A stretch of DNA of 64,000 nt from an uncultured Campylobacterales bacterium (GTDB lineage: Bacteria > Campylobacterota > Campylobacteria > Campylobacterales > QNZT01): positions 17,626 to 81,625 of the forward strand of contig CAZLLE010000011.1 of assembly GCA_964560425.1 (NCBI GenBank). Reading direction: 5' to 3'. The notes beneath the pieces were generated by a model. It had not been told where the DNA came from. It ran no database searches and saw only the letters and a program-made list of their open reading frames with translations. The position numbers and the translations under genes were made by a program. Positions 6,322-58,155 of the stretch are shown in pieces (position 1 is the first letter of the stretch; each line of letters begins with the position of its first letter).

Positions 6322-7206
6322 TTATGAAGTCGTTATGAAGCGGGTCTCTATATATTTTTGAAATGCTTTAAATAGTATGGTTTTATACTTATTTTTGTGA
6401 TAGATAATATATAGTTTTCGCTCTAAGCTGATATTTTTTAACTTTACTTCAAAGAGCTCTTCTCTTTTTAGCTCTTTGGAGACTACAAATTTTGATATGC
6501 ATGTGATGACATCTCTATTTTTTTCAAGAAGAGTTTTCATCTCTTCAAACTCTGTAAACTCCATAAAAATATTTAGATCTTTGGCTATATTATCAAGAGA
6601 ATTGAGAAAGATACCTCTAGTACCTGAACCTTTCTCTCTTAATATCCACTTTTTTGAAAATAACTGATCAATATAGAGTTCTCTATTTTTAAGTTTTTTA
6701 TCGCTTGAAACCACAACAAGTTTATCTTCTCCTAGCTCCTCTTTTATGATATTTGGATCATCACACTCTATCTCTATGATACCCATATCTATATCACCAT
6801 TAAGAAGCATTTGAATAATTTGTGAAGAGTTTTTAATATTTTTATTTATAGTTGCATTTGGATGTTCAACCAAAAAATCAAAAATGATTTGAGGCATGAT
6901 AAATTCACCTATAGTTTTACTAGAGGCAATTTTCAAAATACCAGAGAGTTTATCTTTCCTAAAAAAATCTTCAGCATCTTTTAGAGCCAAAAAGTGTTTA
7001 TAAGTTTTATCTTTAAAAAGCCTACCTCTCTCATTTAGTACCAATCTTTTACCAAGTCTATCAAATAGAGGTTCTGAAAGTTTTTTTTCAAGAGATTTAA
7101 TAGCCAAAGATATAGCCGATTGACTTATCGACACTTTTTGGGCAAGTTGAGATATATGTGGACTCTCAGATAGTGCATAAAACAGTTCTAGTTCTCTCAA
7201 TGTCAT
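6322..7206 (-). CDS. LysR-family transcriptional regulator
   Basis: N-terminal HTH (LRELELFYALSESPHISQLAQKVSISQSAISLAIKSLEKKL) plus a LysR substrate-binding-type C-terminus. Confidence 0.85.
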   Translation of the reverse strand: MTLRELELFYALSESPHISQLAQKVSISQSAISLAIKSLEKKLSEPLFDRLGKRLVLNERGRLFKDKTYKHFLALKDAEDFFRKDKLSGILKIASSKTIGEFIMPQIIFDFLVEHPNATINKNIKNSSQIIQMLLNGDIDMGIIEIECDDPNIIKEELGEDKLVVVSSDKKLKNRELYIDQLFSKKWILREKGSGTRGIFLNSLDNIAKDLNIFMEFTEFEEMKTLLEKNRDVITCISKFVVSKELKREELFEVKLKNISLERKLYIIYHKNKYKTILFKAFQKYIETRFITTS

Positions 7207-8467: not shown

Positions 8468-10414
8468 TTATAGTAAACAGCTTTGAATTTTTTGTACAAT
8501 TGAAGGATCTTCAAGAGTAGAGATATCTTGGGTAATTGGTTCACCTTTTGCAATTGATCTCAAAATTCTTCTCATGATCTTTCCTGATCTTGTTTTTGGA
8601 AGACCTGGAACAAATTTGATATCATCACACTTAGCAATAGCACCAATCTCTTGAACAATAAGTTTATTGATCTCTTGCACCATCTCAACCTCTTCAGCCA
8701 TAGTATCTTCACCTTTTAAAACAATATAAGCAAAAATTCCCTCACCTTTTATATCATGAGGTTTTCCTACAACTGCTACTTCAGCAACATGAGAATGTTT
8801 ATTTACTGCTGCTTCTACTTCAGCTGTACCCATTCTATGACCTGATACATTGATGACATCATCTGTACGACCTGTAATAGTAATATAACCATCTTCATCT
8901 ATCATTGCACCATCGCCAGTAAAATATACAGGTTGACCATCTTTTTTACAGTCACCAAAATATGATTTTTCAAATCTTTCAGGATCACCCCAAATAGTTC
9001 TGATCATACTAGGCCATGGTTTAGTAATACACATAAAACCTTTTTCACCAATAGGAGTAGGAGTACCATCCTCTTCTATTACCTCAGCAATAATTCCTGG
9101 TAGTGGGAATGTAGCACATCCCGGTTTGATAGGAGTAGCAAAAGGAAGAGGACTTATCATATGTCCACCTGTTTCAGTTTGCCAATATGTATCAACAATA
9201 GCACAATTATTATTTCCAATATCCTCATAATACCATTTCCATGCAGGAGGATCAATAGGCTCACCAACTGTTCCAAGAACTTTAAGTGAACTTAGATCAT
9301 ATTTTGCTGGTTCATCTGCACCAAGCTTATGAAGAAGTCTAATAGCTGTAGGAGCTGTATAAAATTGATTAATCTGATACTCTTCTACCATTTTCCAACA
9401 TCTTCCTGCATCAGGGAAAGTAGGAACACCCTCAAATATAACAGTAGTAGCACCCATTGCAAGAGGACCATAAACAATATAAGTATGACCTGTAATCCAA
9501 CCTACATCAGCTGTACACCAATAGGTATCATTATCTTTTACATCAAATACCCACTCCATTGTCATTTGAGCCCACAAAATATATCCAGCTGAACTATGTT
9601 GAACACCTTTTGGTTTTCCTGTACTTCCAGATGTATATAGTAAAAATAGAGGATCTTCACTATCCATTACTTCAGGCTCACATTTATTTGACTCATCTTT
9701 GATTAATTCATTATAACTATAATCTCGTCCAGATACCCACTCAATATCTTCACCATTTCGCTCAACAACACACACCTTCTTGACACATTCACAACCCTCT
9801 TCTAGTGCTTTATCAACTACAGGTTTGAGCATATATGGTTTGCCTTTTCTATAAGCTCCATCAGCTGTAACAACTAATTTTGCCTCTGCATCAATAATCC
9901 TATCTCTAAGAGCTTCAGAAGAGAAACCACCAAATACAATAGAGTGAATAGCACCTAATCTTGCACAAGCCAACATTGTGATAGCTGCTTCAGGAATCAT
10001 AGGCATATAGAGAACAACTCTATCACCTTTTTTGATATCAAATTTATTTTTAAATAGATTTGCCATTTTATTGACTTCATAACTTAGCTCTCGATAAGTT
10101 AAAATTCTCTGATCACCATTATCACCCTCAAAAATAATTGCTGCTTTATTCTTTTTGGTATCTAAATGTCTATCTACACATTGAGTAGAAACATTTAATT
10201 TTCCATCTATAAACCATTTATAAAAAGGTGCATTGCTCTCATCCAAAACTTTTGTATATGGAGATATCCAATCAATCTTTTCATTGGCGTAGTCACCCCA
10301 AAAACCTTCATAATCATCATTAGCTTTTTGCATCAAGGCATGATACTCATCCATACTCTTAATTCTTGCATCTTTAGCAAACTCTGCATTTGGTTGAAAA
10401 ATTTGTTTTTTCAT
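8468..10414 (-). CDS. acs: acetyl-CoA synthetase
   Basis: 648 aa with [31 protein letters not shown] and the C-terminal [11 protein letters not shown] motif. Confidence 0.95.
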
Positions 10415-20896: not shown

Positions 20897-22972
20897 CTAA
20901 AATTTATAACTTCCATTGATATAAAAATATCTACCTGGTTCATTAAAGAGCATAATATTATCAATAGCACTTCCTGTAGTAATAAGTGTTAAATCTTTGT
21001 AAGTATTGGTCGTTGTGTATGTCTCATCTAATATATTATCCACACCAAAAACTAGACTAAGACCATTATCAAAATCTTTATTTACTTTTAGATTAAATGT
21101 TGTATATCCATCCAATGCTTGTTCGCCATTGTCACTATCAAAATCTTCCCAATCAGCAACAGAAGTCATAGTAAGTTTAGAAGATAGTGTATCATCATAA
21201 TCATAATTAAGCCCTATAATCGCTTTTAGTGGTGAGATATCTGCCAAATCTTTATCACTTAATCCTTGTTGTAGATCATCTTTCTCTCCCTTTTTATAAG
21301 ATATTCCATAATCTATATAAAAGCTATCTGTTGCCAAATAGGCACCACTAATCTCTGCACCATAAATAGTAGCATCAATATTTTCAAATATATTTTTATT
21401 TTTAGAGCTATTTATATAAATATAATCTTCCAACATTGAATAGAATAGTTTTGTTTTGATACTAAAACTATCATAAACTTTTTCAAATCCCAAATCAATT
21501 TCATAGTTTGTTGTCTGATCAAGAGAGGGTGTCCCAATAAGCGTATTTTCATCTGGTGACATAGATGACATAAAATATAACTCTCTAGGATCTGGAACTC
21601 TTGAAGATTTACCAACTCCAACAAAATATCTCAAATCATTACCCATATTGATAGTAGCAAAGACATTTGCACTCAAAGCATTATAATCATTCTCTTGATA
21701 ATTTCCACCATTTTCGATGGTTGTATCATCATATCTAGCACCAAAATCAATATCTATATTATCAATGGAGTAGTTCGATTTTAAGAAGATTGCCATATTA
21801 TCTGTGATGACATCATTTAAACTTCTTTTTATTTGACCTTTACTTCCTCCTGCTGGAAATTTCATATAATCTCCACCTACATCTTTATAATATTGACCAT
21901 CCCACTCTCTCTTGCTTCCATCAAGTCCTATAGTAAAATTTGCATATAGAGCATCAAAACTATTTTTGATCTTTACTCCTTGAATTTTTGTAGTTAAATG
22001 GTTAGTAATATTTCCATAAGGTTTACCTGTTTTGGGATTTGTAGCTACCGCTTTTTTACGATACTCTATGGACATAGGATGATCTACCTCAGAATCATAG
22101 TATTGAAAGTCTAATACTTTAGAAAAAGCGGATAAATTTCTAATCTGATACTCAACATTGATAAGATCAGAGTCATCATAAATAGCATCCATTTTAGAAG
22201 ATGGATATAGTACATCATCACTTCTATTTCCTGTAAAACTGAGCTTTATATCTTGATCTTCTGTAATAGCAGCAACTATTTTTGCCATAAAAGTTGTTTT
22301 TTCAAAAGCATCTTTGGAGGCATATCTAGATTGATATTGAGTTCCCTCACTCGTTGTTCCTACTGTTGCATTTATAAGTTGTTGATTAAAATCGTTACCA
22401 TCTCCATCCTCATACTGCTCACCCTTCTCTTTTGCTCCACTAATAAGGAGTTTAATTTTTTCATTACCTCCACTCAAAGTAACTGAAGCTTTTTGATATC
22501 CAAAACTACCAAGACTCAACCCAATTTTACCACCAAATCCCTCTTGTGGTTCTTGAGTAATGATATTTACAACCCCACTCAAAGTTCCAAAATTCTCTAC
22601 ATCAAAAGGTCCCTCTTGAACTTGTACATTATCGACTAAATTTGTAGCAACATGAGAAGTTGGCGGATCCATTCTATTTACACATGCACCACATACTTTA
22701 GTACCATCAATGATAATATTAATGTTATCTCTCTTCTGTCCTCGAAGAATAATATCATTAGCAATACCACTTCTTCTAATCAATGTAACACTCGGTATAT
22801 TTTTACCCAACGCCTCTGCTAAATCAGCAGATTTTATCTCTTGGGCACTTACATCTTTGACACTAATAGTATTAACTCTCTCCTCGATAGTAACCTTATC
22901 CATACTGATACTATCACTTCCAAAAGCGATACTACTCATTGCAAACAGAAGTACTGCACTATATTTAAACAT
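20897..22972 (-). CDS. TonB-dependent receptor, OprC/NosA-like (copper-type)
   Basis: Signal peptide, plug, barrel and terminal SYKF. The plug carries CGACVNRMDPPTSH (CxxxM), and DHPM (HxM) lies about 200 residues later, matching the metal-site motifs described for OprC (recalled, not aligned). Confidence 0.6.
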   Translation of the reverse strand: MFKYSAVLLFAMSSIAFGSDSISMDKVTIEERVNTISVKDVSAQEIKSADLAEALGKNIPSVTLIRRSGIANDIILRGQKRDNINIIIDGTKVCGACVNRMDPPTSHVATNLVDNVQVQEGPFDVENFGTLSGVVNIITQEPQEGFGGKIGLSLGSFGYQKASVTLSGGNEKIKLLISGAKEKGEQYEDGDGNDFNQQLINATVGTTSEGTQYQSRYASKDAFEKTTFMAKIVAAITEDQDIKLSFTGNRSDDVLYPSSKMDAIYDDSDLINVEYQIRNLSAFSKVLDFQYYDSEVDHPMSIEYRKKAVATNPKTGKPYGNITNHLTTKIQGVKIKNSFDALYANFTIGLDGSKREWDGQYYKDVGGDYMKFPAGGSKGQIKRSLNDVITDNMAIFLKSNYSIDNIDIDFGARYDDTTIENGGNYQENDYNALSANVFATINMGNDLRYFVGVGKSSRVPDPRELYFMSSMSPDENTLIGTPSLDQTTNYEIDLGFEKVYDSFSIKTKLFYSMLEDYIYINSSKNKNIFENIDATIYGAEISGAYLATDSFYIDYGISYKKGEKDDLQQGLSDKDLADISPLKAIIGLNYDYDDTLSSKLTMTSVADWEDFDSDNGEQALDGYTTFNLKVNKDFDNGLSLVFGVDNILDETYTTTNTYKDLTLITTGSAIDNIMLFNEPGRYFYINGSYKF

Positions 22973-22995
22973 TTCATTCCTCCTAAAAGAGAAAT

Positions 22996-23025
22996 AGTAT
23001 AAAAAATCTGTTAATTATCTGTTAA
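22996..23025 (-). promoter_or_regulatory. TTAACA-N5-TTAACA direct repeat plus TATACT -10-like box upstream of the TonB receptor
   Basis: Gene-strand reading is TTAACAgataaTTAACAgattttTTATACT. The hexamers (plus-strand TGTTAA) are at 23009-23014 and 23020-23025, an 11-bp period. Confidence 0.4.
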
Positions 23026-23094
23026 TTTTTGAAGAGTAAGTAAAAAAAAATTAAATATTTGTATTGAGACTAGCAAACGAAGAGTAGAAAAATT

Positions 23095-44857: not shown

Positions 44858-45886
44858 TTAATTTTGAAATATTAAATTTATTGTAAAAATATTTTGATTT
44901 ACTTCAATATTTTTTTTAATATTTAGCTCATCTGATAGCTTTTGAACTATATGAAGACCTATTCCCAAACCTCTTTGACTCTCTTTATAAAATCTATTAA
45001 ACAGTTTTGAGGGATTTTTTATTCCATAGCTATCATTGCGAATAGTTAATTTTCCATCCTTAGCAATAATCTCTATAAAACCAGTAGATTTATTGTATTT
45101 ACAAGCATTACTAAGTAGATTATAAATAATACGGCTTAAAGCATTTCTATCAGATTTGATACTAAAATCTTCAATATCAATCTTCCAATCCAAATAATCA
45201 TACATAGAGGAGAAAAATTTTACTTGCTCTTGCACAACATCTTTAATAAAAAGTGGCTCCTTCTTAAACTTCATATCTCTCAAATAAGTATCCAAATTTT
45301 TATGCAACATAGAGATTGCTTTAGCACTTATGGCGATACTTTCTACCTCTTCACCTCTTTGGGGCATCATTTTTAGATTAAGTAAAATAGAGGTGATAGG
45401 GGTATTTAGATCATGAATAATATCACGAATAAACTCCTCAAGAAGTTTCAAAGAGTCTCTCATCGGACGAAGAGCATAAAAAGAGAATAGAAGCGAAATT
45501 AAAATAGCTACAAGAGAGAGCATAAAAAAATATAAAAAGGTAGTATCTCTAACTTTTGCAAGAGTCTTGTTATAAGAGGATATAGGATAGTAAACTTTTA
45601 GAAGATCATTATCTTCTTTGGAAAATGGAACCAAAATATAGAGACTCTCCTCATCTTTGTAAAGCTCATAAAGTTTACTATCTTTTTTCTTATCTACAAT
45701 ATCAATATCAAAACGATCATCATCAAAAAAGAGACTATAATTTTTCATCTCCAAAAAAAGGTTTTCACCCAAATGTTCATCTTCAAGCTGATAGTGTCTA
45801 TATAAAATTACTATTAAAAAAAGTTCAATCACTATAAAAAAGAGTAAAAACCCCTTTATTAAAGACTCTTTTTCATAAACTTTCAA
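44858..45886 (-). CDS. sensor histidine kinase
   Basis: Two TM segments around a roughly 100-aa periplasmic loop, H-box IHDLNTPITS, and an ATPase region with GLGIGLHIV. 14-nt overlap with the regulator gene. Confidence 0.85.
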   Translation of the reverse strand: MKVYEKESLIKGFLLFFIVIELFLIVILYRHYQLEDEHLGENLFLEMKNYSLFFDDDRFDIDIVDKKKDSKLYELYKDEESLYILVPFSKEDNDLLKVYYPISSYNKTLAKVRDTTFLYFFMLSLVAILISLLFSFYALRPMRDSLKLLEEFIRDIIHDLNTPITSILLNLKMMPQRGEEVESIAISAKAISMLHKNLDTYLRDMKFKKEPLFIKDVVQEQVKFFSSMYDYLDWKIDIEDFSIKSDRNALSRIIYNLLSNACKYNKSTGFIEIIAKDGKLTIRNDSYGIKNPSKLFNRFYKESQRGLGIGLHIVQKLSDELNIKKNIEVNQNIFTINLIFQN

Positions 45887-46520
45887 TTTTATACCCTACT
45901 CCTCTCACATTTTTGATATCCACATTCAACGATTTTTTTAGTTTATTTATATTAACACGAAGTGCTAAATCAGTAGGTTTTTCCAAAAGCATCAAAAGAT
46001 CCTCTTTTACTACAGGATTTGGATATTCACGAATGAGAGCCATAAAAATATGTTTTTGTACATCACCAATATTAATAAGCTGATTATCTCGATAGATCTC
46101 CCCTTTATCCAAATCAATCATCAAATCTTTATATTTTGTTCTACTTTTTAAAGATGCTGTTTTAGCTTTGATTCTAATAAGTAACTCATCAGGATCAAAT
46201 GGCTTTTTTACATAATCATCTGCCCCTGCAATAAACCCCCTACTTACAGACTCAATATCTATCAAAGCACTAATAATAATAGTAGGTGTAAAATCATCAG
46301 CATCTCTAAGTAAACTCAAAAGATCAATACCATTAATCAATGGTACATTGATATCAAAAAGATAGAGATCATATCTATTTTCATAAGAGAGATCAACCGC
46401 CTCTTCACCATTTTTTGCCCAATCCACACTAAAACCATTTATACTTAGATACTTTATCAAGCTTTTTGAGAGAAGAGGATCATCCTCTAGTAATAATATT
46501 TTAATCAAAACGAACTCCAA
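45873..46520 (-). CDS. OmpR/PhoB-family response regulator
   Basis: ILLLEDDP, DLYLFDINVP and KKPF, plus a winged helix ending VRGVGYKIE. Confidence 0.9.
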   Translation of the reverse strand: MEFVLIKILLLEDDPLLSKSLIKYLSINGFSVDWAKNGEEAVDLSYENRYDLYLFDINVPLINGIDLLSLLRDADDFTPTIIISALIDIESVSRGFIAGADDYVKKPFDPDELLIRIKAKTASLKSRTKYKDLMIDLDKGEIYRDNQLINIGDVQKHIFMALIREYPNPVVKEDLLMLLEKPTDLALRVNINKLKKSLNVDIKNVRGVGYKIESL

Positions 46521-47286
46521 ACCTCAGAGATAGAGAGTTATCATAAGATAAATCATCTAATGCATGAGAGTAATTGAGACTCATAAAATATCTATCTGAA
46601 AATTCATAACTATTAAACCAAGAGATAGCACTATAAGAGTCGCTATCTTGATATATAGATTGGCTATAATCATAAGAGAGGGAACTATACCATTTATTAT
46701 TTATTTCACATCCAAAACCAGCAGAAAATGAACTACTATTTTGGTAATCTACCTCATCACTATCACCATTAAGACTAAATCCATAATATAAAAATATATC
46801 CCATCCATCATCCAAATAATAATCAAGATTGATAGAAGATAGATAATCATTCTCTCCACTACCTATATCCTCATCACCTGTGGCAAATTTAATTCCAAGG
46901 CTGATATAAGTGTTTAAATTTTTATAGTAGTAATTATATCCTCCACTCAAATACAAGTCACCCATCCCTGAGACACTATTTTCAAAAGTATCATAATAGT
47001 TATAGTTTGAAAGTGAAACATCAAAATTATTTTTTGAGTATGAACCAAAAAAGTTAAAACTAGAACTACCATTATCACTATCATCAAAATTAAAATCAGA
47101 GCCAATTTTTAGAAGGATTTTACCTCCACTTCCACCACCAATAGGACAACCACTCTCATCAACCAAAAGATCAAAAGGGGTATTAAGACACTGATCAATA
47201 GTATCATCTACCCCATCAATATCATAATCTTCATAAGCAAAAAGTGAAATTTGAGCTAAAAGAAATATTACATATAAATTTTTCAT
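46501..47286 (-). CDS. outer-membrane beta-barrel protein with N-terminal thrombospondin type-3-like Ca-binding repeat
   Basis: Start taken at the ATG at 47286 (MKNLYVIFLLAQISLFA signal). DIDGVDDTIDQCLNTP...DESGCP, then a Tyr/Ser/Asp-rich strand pattern. Confidence 0.55.
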   Translation of the reverse strand: MKNLYVIFLLAQISLFAYEDYDIDGVDDTIDQCLNTPFDLLVDESGCPIGGGSGGKILLKIGSDFNFDDSDNGSSSFNFFGSYSKNNFDVSLSNYNYYDTFENSVSGMGDLYLSGGYNYYYKNLNTYISLGIKFATGDEDIGSGENDYLSSINLDYYLDDGWDIFLYYGFSLNGDSDEVDYQNSSSFSAGFGCEINNKWYSSLSYDYSQSIYQDSDSYSAISWFNSYEFSDRYFMSLNYSHALDDLSYDNSLSLRFGVRFD

Positions 47287-47287
47287 C

Positions 47288-47680
47288 TTAAGACTTTGGT
47301 GAATGCTGTTTATTTGGTCTATTTTTATGCTTACCATGCTCTTTTTGCTTCTCTTGTGGTAGCTTATTATGAATTTTATTTGCTGGATTTTCTATTTTTT
47401 GAGACTTATTTTTACAATTTTGTCCCGCTTTATTTTGTAAGTGAAGACCTTTATTTTTAGAAAATGATTTTTTCAAATCCATCATAACGGCTCTTCTTGA
47501 CTCTCTATTCATAGATCGAAGTTTCATTTTTAGAGCATTCATCTCTACTCTTCTCTGCGATGCAGGAGCTGATTTCACCTTCTCAATTAAATTTTTTATC
47601 TCTGTATCATGAGGTTCATCACTATAAACAATAGTACCCCTACCAATAAAAAGTATTAAAATTAAAATATATCTATACAC
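47288..47680 (-). CDS. small secreted basic helical protein (unknown family)
   Basis: GTG start 6 nt after AAAGGAG. Signal peptide, a helical Arg/Met-rich core and a Lys/Asn/His-rich tail. TAA-g-ATG junction with the next gene. Confidence 0.55.
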   Translation of the reverse strand: MYRYILILILFIGRGTIVYSDEPHDTEIKNLIEKVKSAPASQRRVEMNALKMKLRSMNRESRRAVMMDLKKSFSKNKGLHLQNKAGQNCKNKSQKIENPANKIHNKLPQEKQKEHGKHKNRPNKQHSPKS

Positions 47681-47704
47681 AGCAAACTCCTTTTCATTTT
47701 AAAG

Positions 47705-47722
47705 GTGTGGTGAGAACACCAC
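47705..47722 (-). terminator. weak hairpin after the RND gene (possible attenuating terminator)
   Basis: TGTGGTG-agaa-CACCACA, with a poor U-run. Confidence 0.3.
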
Positions 47723-47744
47723 AGCTTACGGATTAATTTAAATG

Positions 47745-47776
47745 GATTATAGAATATATTTGTTAGTAAAATGTTA
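47745..47776 (-). promoter_or_regulatory. GTAACA-N5-CTAACA-N9-TATAAT promoter/regulator box
   Basis: Gene-strand reading is GTAACAttttaCTAACAaatatattcTATAAT. The hexamers sit at 47771-47776 and 47760-47765, and the -10 at 47745-47750. Confidence 0.6.
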
Positions 47777-47784
47777 CCTTCACT

Positions 47785-50700
47785 CTATTTACTCTTTTTT
47801 TTATAACTCCAAACAAATACTAACGGAATAAATACTAGAGTCAAAAATGTACCTACAATCAATCCACCAATGGCAACAGCACCAAGAGGAGCTAATCTCT
47901 CCAATCCTATAGCCCAACCAAGAGCTACGGGGATCATTCCTGCTGATACAGCAAGAGCAGTCATTAGAACAGGTCTAGTTCTTATCATAAGACTCTCTTT
48001 CATAGCTTCTATAGCATCTAGCCCCGATTCCATTCTCTCAATAGCAAAGTGTATTAATAAAATTGCATTATTCACAATAATTCCACTAAGAAGCATAAAT
48101 CCCATCATTGCAGGCATAGAAGTATGATAATTCAATATAAGCATAATCCATGCTGCCCCTATAATAGTCAGTGGTATAGAGACAATAACAAGAAATGAAA
48201 TTTTTACAGAATTAAACATTGGTACAAGTGTAAAAAAGATTAAAATAACAGCAAAACCAATAGCACTAACCATTCTTCCTGCTGAATTTTTAAACTGTGC
48301 TTCATCCCCTAGCCTTGTAAGTTCTACATCTTCAGGAAGAGTCATATTTTTTGAAACTTCATCATAATTTGCCATGATATGTGAAATAGCGGCCTTTTCT
48401 CTAAAACCATAAACATCTAGTGTATATTTAAGATTCTCTCTTGTGATAACATTTGGCTCATAAACCTCATTTAAAGATACAAATGTTTTTAGTGGTACTT
48501 TTCCTTTTGGAGTATCAATCAAAACGGAGTTTAGACTATTTAATGAATCAAACCCTTTAAACCAAACTCTTACATTAAAATCTTGAGCATTTTGAAGAGG
48601 AAAATATGAGACTTTTGCTCCTCGAAGTAAAAGTTGTAAATTTTTACTGATATCTCCAGAGCTAACACCATATTGAGAAGCCAACTTTTCATCAATACTA
48701 TAAGCATATACTTTTTTATCTTTATCCCAAGTTTTAGCTAATGAGACAATCCCTTTGGTATTATGAATAACATCTTCTAAAACCTCTCCAGCTTTTTGTA
48801 ATTTATCAAAACTATCACTCGATAACATAATATCAATATTACCTCTAATACTTGAGAGTGCTGAAGCTCCAGAGTCAAATACAAGCATATATTTAATATT
48901 TGGCAAAGATGAAAGATCAACCCTAAGCTTTCGCTGTATCTCCCAAATACTCTGCTCTCTCTCAAATCTATTAACATAATTTGCTGTAATAGAAATATGA
49001 TCAATTCCACTACCACTTCCAATACTCAAAATCCCCGCTTCACTACCAACAGAAGCTGAAACTTTTCGTATATGTTCATCTCTATAGAGAATCTCATTAA
49101 TCTGCAAAACCAACTCTTCGCTTTTAGAGATAGGTAAATTTGGATCAGTAGTAATATTAATTTTGATCGTACCTGTATCCATTGCAGGCATCAACTCTTG
49201 TCCTACAATTGGCATAACAAGTCGAACACTCACCACAAAAAGAGCAATAAGAAGAATAAAATAGCCAAAAGCTACCTTTTTACTATCCAATGCCTTTGTC
49301 ACAACTCCTACAAAAAAATCTCTTAAAGCATTATTTACTGAGTTTGTAATTTTCTGAAAAAAATCTTCAGATTTAATAATCCATGGAGAGTTTATTGTCA
49401 AAATTTTCATAGACAAAAGGGGAACAGCGGTAATAGATATAACATAAGAGGCTGCCAATGCAATCAAGAGTGTACCCACAAGTGGTTGGAAAATTGTCTG
49501 AGGATATCCACCCACAAAGAGCATAGGAGCAAGAGCGATCATAGTTGTAATTGTTCCTGAAAAATCGGCAAACATAATCTCTTTGGTTCCACCCATTACA
49601 GCATCATATATATTATCATGCTCCTCTCTATAGTGCCTCTCTATATTTTCCAATACAACAACCGTATCATCAAGCAAAAGACCAAGAGCCAAAATAATTG
49701 CGGTCAATCCAACAACTGAAAACTCCATGCCAATTCCCCACATAATAGCAATTGTAGTAGCATATACAAGTGGGATAGTAAGAGTCACTATAAGAACTTG
49801 TCTAAAAGATGCCAAAAAGAAAAATACTACAATTGTAGACATAATAATTGCATCTCTCAAAGACTCAAACATATTTGAAATACTCTGCTCTATAATCTCT
49901 TTTTGAGTATCAGTTGTCTCAAAAGATATATTTGGATACTTTTGTGAAAGCTCTGCAATTTTTGCCTCTGCATTTTCAATAGTTTTAACCACATCGGCAC
50001 TAATACCTCTTTGTACTGATATAGCTATCGCTTTTTTACCATTACCATAATAGAGAGCTGAATTTTTATAGTGTTCAAATTTAACTTTGGCTACATCTTT
50101 TAATTTAATATCAGCAGATATAGGTAGATTCAAAAGAGATTTTATATTATCTCTTTTACCAATATTTTTTACCAAAAAGCTACTATCTTTAGAATCCAAA
50201 AAGCCAATAGCATAATCTTTATTATTTGATCTTAAGGCATTAATCACAGCATTAATAGGCAAATGATAACGATCAAGTAGACTCTTATCAATCTCTACAC
50301 GAACCTCTTTTTTATATCCACCAAAAATATCAACATTTGCAACACCTTCTACAGTAAGAAGAGAGTTTTTCACCTCATTTTCGGCAATCTCTTTGATATC
50401 TTGCAAAGATAACTTATCACTACTTGCACCAAATACAATTACAGGTGGAGTTGCCGCTGATATTTTATGAATTTGTGGTTCTAATAGATCACTTGGCAGT
50501 GATGATTTTATCTTGTTAATAGAGTTAGCAACATCATTTGCCGCTTCTGATAGATCTTTACCATACTCAAATTCAACTCTTACAACACTAACTTCATCAA
50601 TTGTATTTGAGTATACTCGTCTAACTTTATCTATACTATAAAACTCTTTTTCACTAGGTACAGCTACATTTGAAGCTATATCTTTGGCAGAAGCTCCTGG

Positions 50701-50868
50701 TTCTATCATGACAACAGCAATCTCTGGACGATTAGAATCAGGAAAAAGCTTACGATCTATTTTGCCATATCCAATAATTCCCAAAAATACAAATAGCGTC
50801 AAAAATGAGTAGATAAACGCTGGTCGATTTAAGACCTTTTCTATAAAAGAGTCACTATTTTTCATCAA
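47785..50868 (-). CDS. RND efflux transporter permease (AcrB/HAE1-like)
   Basis: 1027 aa with 12-TM/2-loop architecture. The TM4 motif GLLLDDTVVVLENIERH is of the AcrB DD type rather than the heavy-metal type. Confidence 0.85.
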   Translation of the reverse strand: MMKNSDSFIEKVLNRPAFIYSFLTLFVFLGIIGYGKIDRKLFPDSNRPEIAVVMIEPGASAKDIASNVAVPSEKEFYSIDKVRRVYSNTIDEVSVVRVEFEYGKDLSEAANDVANSINKIKSSLPSDLLEPQIHKISAATPPVIVFGASSDKLSLQDIKEIAENEVKNSLLTVEGVANVDIFGGYKKEVRVEIDKSLLDRYHLPINAVINALRSNNKDYAIGFLDSKDSSFLVKNIGKRDNIKSLLNLPISADIKLKDVAKVKFEHYKNSALYYGNGKKAIAISVQRGISADVVKTIENAEAKIAELSQKYPNISFETTDTQKEIIEQSISNMFESLRDAIIMSTIVVFFFLASFRQVLIVTLTIPLVYATTIAIMWGIGMEFSVVGLTAIILALGLLLDDTVVVLENIERHYREEHDNIYDAVMGGTKEIMFADFSGTITTMIALAPMLFVGGYPQTIFQPLVGTLLIALAASYVISITAVPLLSMKILTINSPWIIKSEDFFQKITNSVNNALRDFFVGVVTKALDSKKVAFGYFILLIALFVVSVRLVMPIVGQELMPAMDTGTIKINITTDPNLPISKSEELVLQINEILYRDEHIRKVSASVGSEAGILSIGSGSGIDHISITANYVNRFEREQSIWEIQRKLRVDLSSLPNIKYMLVFDSGASALSSIRGNIDIMLSSDSFDKLQKAGEVLEDVIHNTKGIVSLAKTWDKDKKVYAYSIDEKLASQYGVSSGDISKNLQLLLRGAKVSYFPLQNAQDFNVRVWFKGFDSLNSLNSVLIDTPKGKVPLKTFVSLNEVYEPNVITRENLKYTLDVYGFREKAAISHIMANYDEVSKNMTLPEDVELTRLGDEAQFKNSAGRMVSAIGFAVILIFFTLVPMFNSVKISFLVIVSIPLTIIGAAWIMLILNYHTSMPAMMGFMLLSGIIVNNAILLIHFAIERMESGLDAIEAMKESLMIRTRPVLMTALAVSAGMIPVALGWAIGLERLAPLGAVAIGGLIVGTFLTLVFIPLVFVWSYKKKSK

Positions 50869-51994
50869 AAACTACTCTAATATTTTGTAATGCTAAAAGA
50901 GAAGATAATTTTGATTCACTCCCTACTGCAACTGGTTTAGATATAGAAGGAGAGATAACTGCAAAATTATCATCTTCTACAACAACATCTACTCTCTGTT
51001 TCTCAAACATATCACCGTTATAAACCATAACACTCACATCCTCATCATGCAACAGAGCATTTAGAGGAACAGCCACACCTTTTGCACTTTTAAACAAAAC
51101 TTTAATATTTACAGATGAACCAATAGGCATTTTAATATCATTTTTCAAAGCTATCTCTGCTGTTGTTAATCCATTTTTACTATTATCATAGATAGCAGTA
51201 ATCTCTTCGCTAAACCCCTCTATTTCTACTTTTTGACCTATTTTTATAGGAGTATTTGGAGCATAAGAAAAAATAACTCTCTTTTTATTACTTATAATAT
51301 TCATAATAGGTTTTCCGGGAGCCGAGAGTGAACCCTCTTTGATAAAGATATCACCAACCACACCATCTATAGGAGATACAATTTGAGCATAAGTAGCTTG
51401 ATTTTGTTTTACTTTTAATGCCTCTTTAAGAGAAGAGATCTCTTTTTGTTTTGCTTCAATAGCCTTTTTAGATGCTAATACTTTGGCTTTTTTACTCTGT
51501 AACATTACTAAAGAGTTATCATAAGACTCTTTTGCAATACCACCAATTTCATAGAGTGCTCTGTTTCGCTCAACACTCTCTTTTGCCAAATTTAGATCAG
51601 CTACAGCCACAGAGAAATTCGCTTTTAAAGACTCTTTAGAAAAAATTGAAGCATCAAGTGCATTTTGTTGTTGATTAATGGCAGCTTTGACATCTACAAG
51701 ATCAAGTTCAGCTAAAAGATCACCTTTTTTTACAGCATCTGACTCTCTTACATAGATTTTTTTCAAATATCCACTAAGTTTTGAGCTAATTTGAGGTTGA
51801 TTCATAGCTTGAAGATTTGCCAAAAAAGATTCACTCTCACTAATCTTTTTTACTATTGGCTTATAAACCACAACTGTACTCGACATAGCTTTTGCACTAG
51901 GGGCATTCTCTACAGACTCTTTTCTCTTTTTTACAAGTGTTACTGCACCTATAATTATCAAGATAATTACAAGTAATCCTATAATTTTTTTCAT
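50855..51994 (-). CDS. RND efflux periplasmic adaptor (membrane fusion protein)
   Basis: N-terminal anchor, lipoyl/hairpin/beta-barrel-like organisation, and overlaps with both neighbours. Confidence 0.8.
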   Translation of the reverse strand: MKKIIGLLVIILIIIGAVTLVKKRKESVENAPSAKAMSSTVVVYKPIVKKISESESFLANLQAMNQPQISSKLSGYLKKIYVRESDAVKKGDLLAELDLVDVKAAINQQQNALDASIFSKESLKANFSVAVADLNLAKESVERNRALYEIGGIAKESYDNSLVMLQSKKAKVLASKKAIEAKQKEISSLKEALKVKQNQATYAQIVSPIDGVVGDIFIKEGSLSAPGKPIMNIISNKKRVIFSYAPNTPIKIGQKVEIEGFSEEITAIYDNSKNGLTTAEIALKNDIKMPIGSSVNIKVLFKSAKGVAVPLNALLHDEDVSVMVYNGDMFEKQRVDVVVEDDNFAVISPSISKPVAVGSESKLSSLLALQNIRVVFDEK

Positions 51995-53238
51995 TTTGTA
52001 TCCCCATTTTCTGTAATATATTTGTAGTAATAGATGGCACTTTGAAGTGCATATTTGCTATTTATCTCTTTTGAGAGAGTATTTTGGTGTCTACTTTTGG
52101 CAAAAAGTAGATCATAAATGGTCCCAACCCCTTGATCATAACGCATCTGCTCAATCTTAAGAGTCTCTTCAACCAAAGCCAATTCAGATTTTGCACTTTG
52201 GAGTTTATCTGCTGCAATATCTACTCTTTTTTTTGCCTCTTCTATATCTCTTTTGAGTGTAAGCTCTATTTTTTTACTCTGCAAAGATGATTGCAACTTC
52301 TCTATTTTGGCTTTTTGAACAAGAGATGAACGAGTACCAAAATCAAATAAAACCCAATTCAGTCCAACACCAACTTGCCAAATATCATCACTCTCGCCCT
52401 CACCATAATTATTTCCATAATATCCATTTAGGGATAAGTTTGGATAGTATGAACTATTTGCATTTTGTAATTTCTTATCACTCTTTTTCTCTTCTATTAA
52501 ACTCATTTTATATCTATTAAGAGATTTTATATCTTGATCTTCTAAATCAGCTTTTGATGAAGTTGAAATATCTTCAATATCAGATAGCTCATCTACACCA
52601 ATAATAGATGCCAAAGAGGAGTGTAATATCTCAATATTTGATCTCAACTCTTTGACGCCCACATTTGCACTCTCTAAATCTGCTTTTACCTTCAAAAGAT
52701 CTACTTTTGGTCTTTTACCAATCTCTACACCCAAAGCAACTATCTCTTCAAGCTTTACTAAGGCATCTCTATAAGAGATAGCCCCATTTTCTTGAGATTT
52801 CAGTGATAAAATTTTGAGATAGACAGAGCGAATATTATATATTAACTGTTCACGAGATAGATTTAGAGCCATTTGAGAGATATTTTCTGAAAGTGAAGCA
52901 ATCTCTATATCTCGCATACTTGAAAAACCACTAAAAAGAGAGACATCATAAGCAACACCCAAACTTCCTATCTCTTGGCTTGTTAAAATATTGGATGTAA
53001 TTGGCGGAACAATAGGGGTAAGTGTTCTTGGAATATTATATTTGGTATAACTACCACGCATGCTGATTTTCCCATAATTTGATGCCTTTTTAATATTGAG
53101 TGCTTCATGAGAGAGCAATATTTTATTTTTTTGCATCAAAAAATCTGGACTATTTTTCAGACCTATCTCTATAGCTTGTTCAAGAGTTATAGCATGAATA
53201 GTTATAGCAGATAGAATCAATAACAATGATTTTTTCAT
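51991..53238 (-). CDS. TolC-family outer-membrane efflux protein
   Basis: Signal peptide, a duplicated OEP-type repeat pattern, 415 aa. First gene of the efflux operon. Confidence 0.8.
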   Translation of the reverse strand: MKKSLLLILSAITIHAITLEQAIEIGLKNSPDFLMQKNKILLSHEALNIKKASNYGKISMRGSYTKYNIPRTLTPIVPPITSNILTSQEIGSLGVAYDVSLFSGFSSMRDIEIASLSENISQMALNLSREQLIYNIRSVYLKILSLKSQENGAISYRDALVKLEEIVALGVEIGKRPKVDLLKVKADLESANVGVKELRSNIEILHSSLASIIGVDELSDIEDISTSSKADLEDQDIKSLNRYKMSLIEEKKSDKKLQNANSSYYPNLSLNGYYGNNYGEGESDDIWQVGVGLNWVLFDFGTRSSLVQKAKIEKLQSSLQSKKIELTLKRDIEEAKKRVDIAADKLQSAKSELALVEETLKIEQMRYDQGVGTIYDLLFAKSRHQNTLSKEINSKYALQSAIYYYKYITENGDTK

Positions 53239-53332
53239 ATATATCCTAATTTTTTTAATAAATTTAATATTACCGATTAAATATAAATTATAGATATATA
53301 ATCGGATAAATTATTATATTTTGTAATAAAAG

Positions 53333-53364
53333 AGTATATAGAAGATTTGTTACTTAAGTGTTAC
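53333..53364 (-). promoter_or_regulatory. GTAACA-N5-GTAACA-N9-TATACT promoter/regulator box upstream of the efflux operon
   Basis: Gene-strand reading is GTAACActtaaGTAACAaatcttctaTATACT. The hexamers sit at 53359-53364 and 53348-53353, and the -10 at 53333-53338. Confidence 0.6.
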
Positions 53365-53375
53365 TTTCAGATAAA

Positions 53376-53400
53376 ATAGCCTGATAAAGCATCAGGCTAT
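53376..53400 (-). terminator. rho-independent terminator of the 127-aa gene
   Basis: ATAGCCTGAT-aaagc-ATCAGGCTAT: a 10-bp perfect stem followed on the minus strand by TTTTATCT. Confidence 0.7.
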
Positions 53401-53412
53401 TAAAATTATGGA

Positions 53413-53796
53413 CTATTTACCAGAGCCTGAGCCATCTTTAAGTTTTTGTTGTCTCTTTCCTTGGTTTTGTTGCTTTTGGACACGATCAACACCTTGATTC
53501 ATCTTACCAGCACCTGAACCATCTCTAAGTCTCTGATGAACTCCTTGAGAATAACCTTGTCCTTCACCTCTATTTGCTCCTTTATTCTTCCCCATTCCTC
53601 TACTTGCTCTATATTTTGCTCTCTCTTGTGGGGTCATCGCCTGCATTCTACTTTGCATCTCTGATCTAAAGGCTTCTCTATTTTCAATAGGAACACTACC
53701 TCTCAAAGAGGTTAACTCATCAGTTGTCATTTGTGAATAATCTGCTGCCAATAAACTAATACTAACTAAACTCATTGCTATAATTATATTTCTCAT
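53413..53796 (-). CDS. small secreted helical protein with Gly/Gln/Lys-rich tail (DUF1104-like?)
   Basis: Signal peptide, a helical core (MTTDELTSLRGSVPIENREAFRSEMQSRMQAMTPQERAKYR), and repeated (R/K)L(R/K)DGSG(A/S)GK near the C-terminus. Confidence 0.55.
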   Translation of the reverse strand: MRNIIIAMSLVSISLLAADYSQMTTDELTSLRGSVPIENREAFRSEMQSRMQAMTPQERAKYRASRGMGKNKGANRGEGQGYSQGVHQRLRDGSGAGKMNQGVDRVQKQQNQGKRQQKLKDGSGSGK

Positions 53797-53845
53797 CTTT
53801 TATCCTTTTTTTAAATCTGACATATCAAACTTTATTGATAATGAA

Positions 53846-53877
53846 AGTATAAAAAAAAATTGTTACCTAATTGTTAC
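53846..53877 (-). promoter_or_regulatory. GTAACA-N5-GTAACA-N9-TATACT promoter/regulator box upstream of the 127-aa gene
   Basis: Gene-strand reading is GTAACAattagGTAACAattttttttTATACT. It overlaps the hemerythrin stop codon. The distal hexamer also forms the palindrome GTTACtagaaGTAAC (53873-53887). Confidence 0.6.
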
Positions 53878-56855: not shown

Positions 56856-57797
56856 TTATTCAAAGTTAATAGTTGCCAATGTCCCTTTACTAGGAATAGA
56901 TTCAACTTTAATCTTAAAACCATAAAAATCTACCACATTTTTTACAATACTAAGACCAATACCAAAACCACCCTCACTTCTATTAGATCTATTAAATTGC
57001 TGAAATATATTTTTAAGTTGCTTAGAATCCATTCCAACGCCAGAATCTTTGACGCTAAATTTATGTTCATCAAGAGAGATAACAATCTCACCACCCTTCT
57101 TATTATATTTAATAGAATTGGATATTAGATTATCAATAAGTCTAATTGCATCATTTTTATCCAATTCACAAAAAACTTTTTCATCAATGGACTCTATTAA
57201 TTTGACTCTTTTTGATTTCATCATCGCTCCAAAATAGATTAATCTATCCTTTAGAAGTTTACTCAAATTAACACGCTCTATATCTCTCAAATGTTTATGA
57301 TTGAGTTGAATATATATTAAGTCCTCATATAATCTATTTAAAGTTTGTGAAGCAATAGAAATTCTTGTTAACTCCTTTTTATCTTGACAATCCTCTTTAT
57401 TCTCTAAGAGTTCAATATTCATTAATATTGCACTAATGGGGGTATTTAATTCATGTGTCGCATCTCTAATAAAATCATTTATAGCTTTAAAAGAGGAGTG
57501 CATATGTGTATTAAAAAGTTTTCCAAAAAAATAACCAAAAAGTATAATAAAGAACAATGAAACCAGAAATATTGTAATAACTATCTCTTCTAAACTAATA
57601 ATATTTGGCTCTTCATGACTTCCCAACATATCTGCTTGTAGCTGTTGTCCAATAAAAATAGTCTGATTACCTCTCACTCCTCCTCCATCTAAATAAGAGT
57701 AAAATGCAAATAATACACTACCCACAAAAAATGTAGTAGAGATAACATATGTAATATAAAATTTAATCATTCTTCTTTTATCATCAGATTCCATCAA
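56856..57797 (-). CDS. sensor histidine kinase (short periplasmic loop)
   Basis: Two TM segments, H-box THELNTPISA, and an ATPase region with DSGVGM and GGFGIGLSIV. Confidence 0.85.
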   Translation of the reverse strand: MMESDDKRRMIKFYITYVISTTFFVGSVLFAFYSYLDGGGVRGNQTIFIGQQLQADMLGSHEEPNIISLEEIVITIFLVSLFFIILFGYFFGKLFNTHMHSSFKAINDFIRDATHELNTPISAILMNIELLENKEDCQDKKELTRISIASQTLNRLYEDLIYIQLNHKHLRDIERVNLSKLLKDRLIYFGAMMKSKRVKLIESIDEKVFCELDKNDAIRLIDNLISNSIKYNKKGGEIVISLDEHKFSVKDSGVGMDSKQLKNIFQQFNRSNRSEGGFGIGLSIVKNVVDFYGFKIKVESIPSKGTLATINFE

Positions 57798-58155
57798 CTC
57801 TATTTTCCTTAGTTATATTTAATGTTTTAAAAATAAAAGCCAATAATGTTTGTAAAGTAAATGGTCTTGGCATATATTGCCCATGTAATACATTTTTTTC
57901 GCTTTTTTGAGAAAAAACCAAAGAACCAATCAAAATTGATGGTAAAATTTTTTTGGAATATAGATAAGAGAGGCTATAAAGAATTAAAAAATTTGTATTT
58001 ACAAGTATTAAGTCAACTTCCAATTTGCTAAGCATCTCTTTGGCAACCAACGCATCAAATGCTTGGATAACAAAAAATCCTTGTTCTGTCAAAAACTCAG
58101 TGAGTGTTTCACTAAAAACAATATCCTCTTCAAGTAACAAAATGGTGCCTGACAT
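57784..58155 (-). CDS. stand-alone receiver-like domain with degenerate phospho-acceptor site
   Basis: LLLEEDIVF start and overall receiver layout, but VDLILVNTNF has Asn where the acceptor Asp is expected and RPF replaces KPF. There is no output domain. 14-nt overlap with the kinase gene. Confidence 0.6.
   Translation of the reverse strand: MSGTILLLEEDIVFSETLTEFLTEQGFFVIQAFDALVAKEMLSKLEVDLILVNTNFLILYSLSYLYSKKILPSILIGSLVFSQKSEKNVLHGQYMPRPFTLQTLLAFIFKTLNITKENRVDGI

Follow-up and report, generated by a model that had tools for sequence, protein, structure and literature searches.

A tandem GTAACA box is the probable operator of an OmpR/PhoB-type regulator of envelope genes in Sulfurovum-clade Campylobacterota

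The PHO box of Escherichia coli, which is read by PhoB, consists of two direct repeats with an 11-bp period and lies about 10 bp upstream of the −10 element, in the place of a −35 element. The E. coli CpxR box has the form GTAAA-N5-GTAAA, and the small, periplasmic, helical protein CpxP is a main target of the Cpx system. An 11-bp period is also found in the Bacillus subtilis PhoP box, with the repeat TT(A/T/C)ACA (PMC11870197), and in the Pseudomonas aeruginosa BqsR site, a tandem TTAAG-N6-TTAAG (PMC4358008). In Helicobacter pylori, the OmpR-type two-component system CrdRS responds to copper by activating crdA-crdB-czcB-czcA (PMC9696931), and CrdR binds paired AC-rich motifs with the core AACACC-ATTT-CCACAA (bioRxiv 10.64898/2026.06.29.735229). 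Here we describe a tandem box, GTAACA-N5-STAACA, that occurs three times in a 64-kb stretch of DNA (the window) from an uncultured Campylobacterales bacterium (contig CAZLLE010000011.1), in a locus that encodes small secreted proteins, a TolC-type efflux pump and an OmpR/PhoB-type response regulator with its sensor kinase. We propose, with a probability of roughly 70%, that the three sites are operator boxes of this regulator (Table 1), and we read both binding and activation from sequence.

The original prediction had read the three sites on the minus strand, where all three sequences are indeed present; its coordinates were exact for sites 1 and 2, whereas site 3 occupies positions 47746-47777 and not 47745-47776. 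It had also described two hexamers with an 11-bp period, followed after 9 nt by a −10-like hexamer, and this architecture proved to be far from random. The pattern GTAACA-N5-STAACA was matched three times in the window compared to a mean of 0.02 in dinucleotide shuffles, which served as the null for motif counts, and no shuffle reached three. All three matches lie on the gene strand in noncoding DNA, and in each case the direct repeat ends 9 nt before a TATAMT hexamer. When two mismatches were allowed, the extra matches were scattered across the window, and none of them had a −10 box at the right distance. A 34-nt position weight matrix (PWM), trained on 114 sites that all came from other genomes (window excluded), singled out the same three sites with scores of 33.0 to 38.4; the next match in the window scored 14.4, inside the range of 20 shuffled windows (maximum, 14.9). 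A scan of the window for the sigma-70 consensus was uninformative because the genome is AT-rich and lacks −35 elements: it returned 59 promoter-like sites versus 60 expected and called none of the three boxes. Direct reading of the three sequences revealed neither a −35-like hexamer nor a TG extension, and at site 2 the hexamer found 17 nt ahead of the −10 box, ACACTT, matches TTGACA at 0 of 6 positions. This layout fits an activator-dependent promoter.

Using the regulator as the query of a genome collection, we obtained 43 orthologous loci (45 to 72% identity; 523 kb), and 37 loci containing unrelated paralogues of the regulator (572 kb) served as the control set. The pattern NTAACA-N5-NTAACA occurred 86 times in the orthologous loci and not once in the control loci. 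When TAACA pairs were sorted by the gap between their hexamers, from 0 to 16 nt, a gap of 5 nt accounted for these 86 pairs, compared to 0 to 8 pairs for any other gap and 1.7 predicted by independent placement. Most pairs (78/86) share the strand of the regulator, and 83 of the 86 fall outside long open reading frames (ORFs), typically with a same-strand gene start 50 to 90 nt downstream. The offset to the −10 hexamer in the orthologous loci is most often 9 nt (53 cases) and has lesser peaks at 7 and 12 nt, and the spacer between box and −10 hexamer measured 9 nt in 76 of 91 sites. Among 49 aligned sites, information content is concentrated in (A/G)GTAACA, NTAACA-AA and TAnAMT, and flanks and spacers carry almost none.

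The box is also tied to the regulator by its position. In 44 nonredundant loci with enough upstream sequence, a strict box was found upstream of the regulator operon 39 times, at a median distance of 1,243 nt, which places it ahead of the small-protein and barrel genes described below; with a relaxed pattern, the count rose to 42. Judged by its placement, a box ahead of orthologous regulator operons is a signature of autoregulation. In many genomes a box is found directly after the kinase gene as well. The cultured relative Sulfurovum sp. CS9 (CP180410.1) has boxes at positions 8738, 11643 and 13047 of its locus (L205). Since dozens of related genomes have kept the box beside this two-component regulator, it is very probably the binding site of the regulator encoded in the locus.

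An unanchored scan of metagenomes with the full 32-nt pattern yielded 119 loci. Of 55 purine-flanked boxes, 35 stood ahead of DUF1104 or DUF2202 genes, and the regulator was also present in 15 loci. The pyrimidine-flanked sites (TGTAACA or CGTAACA) were on contigs of higher GC content from other organisms, and 1 of 67 preceded such a gene. Four loci of the scan (L097, L104, L109 and L110) carry a pyrimidine-flanked GTAACA-N5-GTAACAA-N8-TATAMT upstream of genes for PstS-like phosphate-binding proteins, and these sites are likely to be Pho boxes of other phyla, evidence that use of the hexamer is widespread among OmpR-family regulators.

The original prediction had likened the repeats to the binding mode of OmpR/PhoB-family regulators, and the domains of the encoded protein are in line with this, as are the specific spacing, strand and −10 offset of the sites. 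The receiver domain matches PF00072 at 5e-25, residues D13, D14, D56, S84 and K106 are invariant in 28 orthologues, and full-length alignments to DrrD and MtrA were obtained. A profile built from 20 orthologous effector domains matched OmpR-family winged helices from end to end (7e1d at 2.9e-7, followed by AdeR, MtrA, DrrD, OmpR and CovR), and many orthologues carry a precomputed PF00486 match. On these comparisons we place the regulator in the OmpR/PhoB family, with a divergent DNA-binding domain whose winged helix is recognizable by profile only. A putative recognition helix, LALRVNIxKLKK, is nearly invariant among the orthologues, parallel to the invariant TAACA core of the box. The nearest homologues, at about 70% identity, belong to Sulfurovum-clade Campylobacterota, and three sister sequences reach 90%. 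Since the database homologue is 211 aa long, the true start of the regulator is probably located 4 codons downstream of the annotated one. Neither the regulator nor the kinase reaches the cut-off of a named NCBIfam equivalog, and a signal can therefore not be assigned by orthology.

In the mechanism that we favor, the kinase would phosphorylate the regulator, which would then bind as a head-to-tail dimer to the two (A/G)GTAACA half-sites 11 bp apart, over roughly −38 to −22. With the −10 box set at −12 to −7, the half-sites would fall at about −38 to −33 and −27 to −22. The bound regulator would stand in for the missing −35 element and recruit housekeeping RNA polymerase to the TATAMT hexamer 9 nt downstream. 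We read the sites as class II activator sites because their geometry is that of the E. coli PHO box. The predicted targets in the window are the secreted DUF1104 protein, the TolC-MFP-RND pump (MFP, membrane-fusion protein) and the operon of the regulator itself, on which site 3 would confer positive autoregulation. As no terminator separates the pump genes from site 3, read-through from site 2 may add to the expression of the regulator operon.

For regulon content, the genes downstream of boxes were clustered and annotated with Pfam. The core operon, in the order box, small DUF1104-like protein, TSP3 barrel, regulator and kinase, was found in about 41 loci; the small protein of the 130-aa type is the first or second gene after the box in 41 loci, and the TSP3 barrel is a conserved second operon gene with 43 members in 41 loci. 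The other box-headed families were DUF2202 ferritin-like lipoproteins (68 in 51 loci, some with His-rich N termini), DUF1104 proteins (41 in 33 loci), a lipoprotein of about 411 aa with no assigned family (10 members), multicopper oxidases with Met-rich inserts (8 in 6 loci), NosL (2 members), a single LTXXQ (CpxP-family) protein (L146), and OEP, MFP and RND components of pumps (5, 3 and 2 members, respectively). The regulon consists almost entirely of secreted or envelope proteins, and no phosphate-starvation (Pst/Pho) genes followed Sulfurovum-type boxes. Of the autoregulated three-promoter regulon that the original prediction had drawn, the autoregulatory part finds support in the box counts upstream of the regulator operon, but the conserved regulon is not centered on efflux: its core is formed by DUF1104-like proteins, DUF2202 lipoproteins, the TSP3 barrel, the regulator and the kinase, and among the loci compared a box dedicated to the pump was found only in the window.

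Such a content is most plausibly explained as an envelope response to a divalent metal or a related envelope stress, a signal that we read from the identity of the genes. The multicopper oxidases and NosL suggest copper, the DUF2202 proteins suggest iron or a di-metal ferritin-like center, and the TSP3 motif of the barrel, together with EF-hand fusions on some DUF1104 proteins, suggests calcium. An alignment of 35 orthologous kinases showed a conserved acidic motif, FFFDDxRFDIDIV, in the periplasmic domain. Against the heavy-metal CusR/CopR/CzcR model TIGR01387 the regulator scored 87 bits, compared to a cut-off of 279, over residues 8 to 165 only, and it falls outside that family. A further-reaching idea, which we consider possible but doubtful, is that the invariant four-gene unit forms a trans-envelope sensing module not described so far. 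On this view, an extracellular divalent-metal signal (Cu, Fe(II) or Ca) would reach the kinase by way of the barrel and the small protein, and the box would define a metal-defence regulon throughout the Sulfurovaceae. A literature search on DUF1104, DUF2202 and Sulfurovum two-component regulons returned no functional work.

Comparison with the systems introduced above brings out both kinship and distance. The box shares with the E. coli PHO box its two direct repeats, its 11-bp period, its placement some 10 bp ahead of the −10 hexamer, where a −35 element would otherwise lie, and a presumed reader from the OmpR/PhoB family, and its half-site NTAACA falls within the B. subtilis PhoP consensus. 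It differs from the Pho systems in the purine-G prefix of the half-site and in the absence of phosphate-starvation genes downstream, and the regulator scored 78 to 82 bits on PhoB models with cut-offs of 270 to 296. We therefore ruled out a Pho regulon; the PstS-linked GTAACA repeats are the pyrimidine-flanked sites of other phyla. The closest characterized analogue within the phylum is H. pylori CrdRS, and its gene order of small secreted protein, TolC, MFP and RND recurs in the DUF1104-TolC-MFP-RND order of the window. However, the box does not resemble the CrdR motif, the small protein in the window is an HP0721-like DUF1104 protein, the pump is a lineage-specific member, and the system falls outside the CrdRS type. 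With P. aeruginosa BqsRS (CarRS), which responds to ferrous iron and calcium, our system shares an 11-bp tandem site, a regulon of secreted and envelope proteins, and a putative link to extracytoplasmic cations; the half-sites differ in sequence, and for the window a metal signal is suggested by regulon content only. The half-site and spacing are nearly those of the E. coli CpxR box, and one Sulfurovum-type box precedes the LTXXQ protein mentioned above. In contrast, the regulator scored 67 bits on the CpxR model (cut-off, 341) through its receiver domain only and is thus not an orthologue, and the small proteins resemble DUF1104/HP0721 rather than CpxP.

Several observations weigh against the interpretation of the sites as activator operators in a metal-responsive envelope regulon. 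The effector domain is divergent, with a Pfam Trans_reg_C score of 17 bits compared to a cut-off of 26, and a single effector-domain sequence matched the PDB only at E=0.65. Covariation between helix and box was looked for among the orthologues, and none was clear: L034 combines a degenerate box (TTAACA-N5-GTAATA-N9-TATCAT, 6376-6410) with an altered putative recognition helix (LTLRVHISKLKK), L035 has the degenerate box TTAATA-N5-CTAATA-N9-TAAACT (2185-2217), and L027 shares the helix variant of L035 and has canonical boxes. In other genomes, the −10 spacing ahead of the regulator operon varies (7, 9 or 12 nt), and the second half-site is weaker. The clues to the signal conflict, pointing variously to copper, iron, calcium and a multidrug-like pump, and this pump carries what we take to be an AcrB-like DD pair in the LLLDDTVVVLEN segment and not a CusA/CzcA-type motif. 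Finally, a site over −38 to −22 would suit a repressor equally.

This last point leads to the alternative that fares best, in which the same regulator represses through the box, occupying −38 to −22 and blocking RNA polymerase until a signal removes it. The box does overlap the region that RNA polymerase must contact, and the −10 hexamers are near consensus, so that the basal promoter could be active unaided; promoters of Campylobacterota generally work without a −35 element. We nevertheless consider repression unlikely, because repressor sites tolerate variable positions, whereas the fixed distance of 9 nt to the −10 hexamer and the co-orientation of box and gene match activation of the pho-box type. 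In addition, positive autoregulation of the two-component operon is usual in the OmpR/PhoB family.

It is also conceivable that a different protein, for example, a paralogous OmpR-family regulator encoded elsewhere in the genome, reads the box and that the two-component system merely shares its neighborhood. Other OmpR-family regulators do use GTAACA-like repeats with an 11-bp period, as seen at the pyrimidine-flanked sites upstream of PstS-like genes in other phyla and in the B. subtilis PhoP box (PMC11870197). Yet the box heads the operon of this very regulator in 39 to 42 of the 44 loci and in many genomes is found again just past the kinase gene, purine-flanked boxes co-occur with the regulator on short metagenome contigs, and a look at neighboring genes turned up no other DNA-binding regulator, a second kinase nearby being without a DNA-binding partner. 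A different reader is thus quite improbable.

Two explanations that dispense with a transcription factor fare worse still. If one GTAACA hexamer were the −35 element of an alternative sigma factor of the extracytoplasmic function (ECF) type, the AAC of the hexamer would be accounted for, since ECF −35 elements often contain this triplet; however, the hexamers end 9 and 20 nt from the −10-like box, neither of which fits the 16 to 18 nt expected of a sigma-70-family spacer, TATAMT is a −10 element of the housekeeping and not of the ECF type, and a sigma factor would leave two equally conserved copies at an exact 11-bp period unexplained, which makes this account very improbable indeed. Recent duplication of a promoter segment, a mobile repeat or chance in AT-rich DNA has a negligible likelihood: sites 2 and 3 do share a 38-nt stretch with 76% identity, but this comprises the motif and few bases more between unrelated flanks, three matches stand against an expectation of 0.02, the motif is kept in genomes whose regulators are only 60 to 72% identical and whose surrounding intergenic DNA is not kept, and a known RNA family was ruled out along with duplication and mobile elements as no Rfam family matched.

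The features of the locus are listed in Table 1, and the Pfam annotation agrees with the genes that the original prediction had assigned downstream of the three sites.

Table 1. Boxes, genes and RNA structures of the locus, with coordinates in the window
Feature	Coordinates	Strand	Description
Site 1	53846..53877	−	Box GTAACAattagGTAACA (53861-53877), 9-nt spacer, −10 hexamer TATACT (53846-53851); full sequence GTAACAattagGTAACAattttttttTATACT; predicted promoter of the 127-aa DUF1104 gene; PWM score, 37.0
Site 2	53333..53364	−	Box GTAACActtaaGTAACA, 9-nt spacer, −10 hexamer TATACT; full sequence GTAACActtaaGTAACAaatcttctaTATACT; predicted promoter of the TolC-MFP-RND operon, leader of about 88 nt; PWM score, 38.4 (best in the window)
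Site 3	47746..47777	−	Box GTAACAttttaCTAACA (17-mer 47761-47777), 9-nt spacer, −10 hexamer TATAAT; full sequence GTAACAttttaCTAACAaatatattcTATAAT; predicted internal promoter of the small protein-barrel-regulator-kinase operon; PWM score, 33.0
Response regulator	45873..46520	−	OmpR/PhoB type; presumed reader of the box
Sensor histidine kinase	44858..45886	−	Pfam HisKA and HATPase_c; two predicted transmembrane segments, periplasmic domain of about 85 aa
127-aa secreted protein	53413..53796	−	DUF1104 (HP0721-like); site 1 target; Pfam PF06518, 25.8 bits (cut-off, 25)
TolC-like OEP	51991-53238	−	Pfam; site 2 target
MFP	50855-51994	−	Pfam; site 2 target
RND permease	47785-50868	−	Pfam; site 2 target; whole pump spans 47785..53238
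130-aa secreted protein	47288..47680	−	DUF1104-like, without a direct Pfam match; first gene of the regulator operon
278-aa outer-membrane beta-barrel	46501..47337	−	Pfam Phenol_MetA_deg, 3e-8; N-terminal TSP3-like DxDxDG motif
Terminator-like hairpin	53371..53398	−	AGCCUGAU-GCUUU-AUCAGGCU followed by UUUUAU; between the DUF1104 gene and site 2
Structured leader of the site 3 transcript	47682..47729	−	GUGGUG-UUCU-CACCAC hairpin and a helix that partly pairs the Shine-Dalgarno sequence

An upstream hemerythrin gene ends inside site 1, its TAG stop codon occupying 53869-53867. Site 3 is classed as an internal promoter because it lies 8 nt past the stop codon of the RND gene with no terminator in between. 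The terminator-like hairpin has a predicted folding energy of −14.9 kcal/mol (z=−4.1), and the structured leader of the site 3 transcript folds with −17.3 kcal/mol (z=−3.3). A comparable GUGGUG/CACCAC hairpin is present in L203, between the DUF1104 and small-protein genes, and the leader structure could represent an attenuator, a site of processing or what remains of a terminator. The nearest NCBIfam model of the RND permease is the multidrug RND_permease_2 model, with a score below the cut-off.

BLAST clustering links the 130-aa protein to DUF1104, and hhalign between the two families gave a probability of 87% (E=4e-6). A merged profile of both matched H. pylori HP0721 (PDB 2xrh) over nearly its full length at E=1.6e-5, and by these profile comparisons the two small proteins of the window belong to one superfamily. 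Kinship with CpxP, Spy or ZraP was ruled out, the profile matching HP0721 instead. The DUF1104 protein of the window (53413-53540, minus strand) and DUF1104 homologues in L008, L009, L018, L024 and L039 have in common a C-terminal low-complexity motif, (R/K)L(R/K)DGSGxG(M)MHRGGG(K/R)G(K/R)R, which is present twice in the window protein (RLRDGSGAGK and KLKDGSGSGK); in some homologues its place is taken by a canonical EF-hand loop, DADGDGKI.

Related loci offer a view of how the arrangement arose. In the sister-species loci L200 to L202, the hemerythrin gene is followed by a box that matches site 1 almost exactly and directly precedes the small protein-barrel-regulator-kinase operon, and these loci contain neither the DUF1104 gene nor the pump. 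In L203, also from a sister species, the box after the hemerythrin gene heads the DUF1104 gene, which is followed by the hairpin and the small-protein operon without a second box. In L206, whose regulator and RND permease are 75% and 58% identical to those of the window, the pump is immediately followed by the regulator operon, the same order as in the window, but the pump promoter has no GTAACA box, and the only box follows the RND gene in a position like that of site 3. In L085, where the RND permease is 88% identical, a single box precedes a DUF1104 gene, followed by a DUF234 gene and the pump, and there is no second box. No box was found directly ahead of the homologous pumps in L206, L207 and L085. 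To judge from these arrangements, the box that follows the hemerythrin gene is old, and so is the one that precedes the regulator operon.

Some neighboring features stand apart from the three sites. In L206 (172-1969 and 3100-3212), the homologous TolC-MFP-RND operon adjoins a different OmpR-type two-component system and has a promoter region with TTCACACACAGTTCA in place of the GTAACA box, suggesting that the pump changed regulators between lineages. In the window, a second histidine kinase of 313 aa (HisKA and HATPase_c; 56856-58155, minus strand) is preceded by a 123-aa ORF without a Pfam match and has no adjoining response regulator, and this pair of genes is kept in L200 to L202. A fourth candidate site, TTAACAGATAATTAACA at 23026, was rejected as a member of the set, with a PWM score in the null range (14.4) and a −10 spacing of 7 nt. 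This sequence (22993-23026, minus strand), with TATACT 7 nt further on, precedes an ORF for a TonB-dependent receptor (20900-22975, minus strand; Plug and barrel domains), and its 17-mer, spacer included, recurs ahead of a TonB-dependent receptor gene in L032 and of a cytochrome c-like gene in L015. This site is probably an operator of another kind, with a GATAAT core reminiscent of Fur boxes.

The mechanism that we propose, an OmpR/PhoB-type box in class II position with autoregulation, is a textbook one and would not surprise a specialist. What is new is a conserved and previously undescribed regulon of secreted and envelope proteins without known function in the Sulfurovum clade. The box, captured by the PWM and the fixed 9 nt to the −10 hexamer, is a sharp and portable signature that defines this regulon in a clade of Campylobacterota from vents and sediments that is important ecologically but still untouched by genetics. 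It ties DUF1104 proteins, DUF2202 ferritin-like lipoproteins and the TSP3 barrel to multicopper oxidases, NosL and an RND pump. Turnover of the regulon is visible in the window as well, where an RND operon that has a different promoter in a relative is equipped with its own copy of the box. For H. pylori HP0721, the structure has been solved but the role is not known, and the functions of these families become testable through a defined regulator. If the four-gene unit does form a sensing module, this would give the DUF1104 (HP0721) and DUF2202 families a first physiological role.

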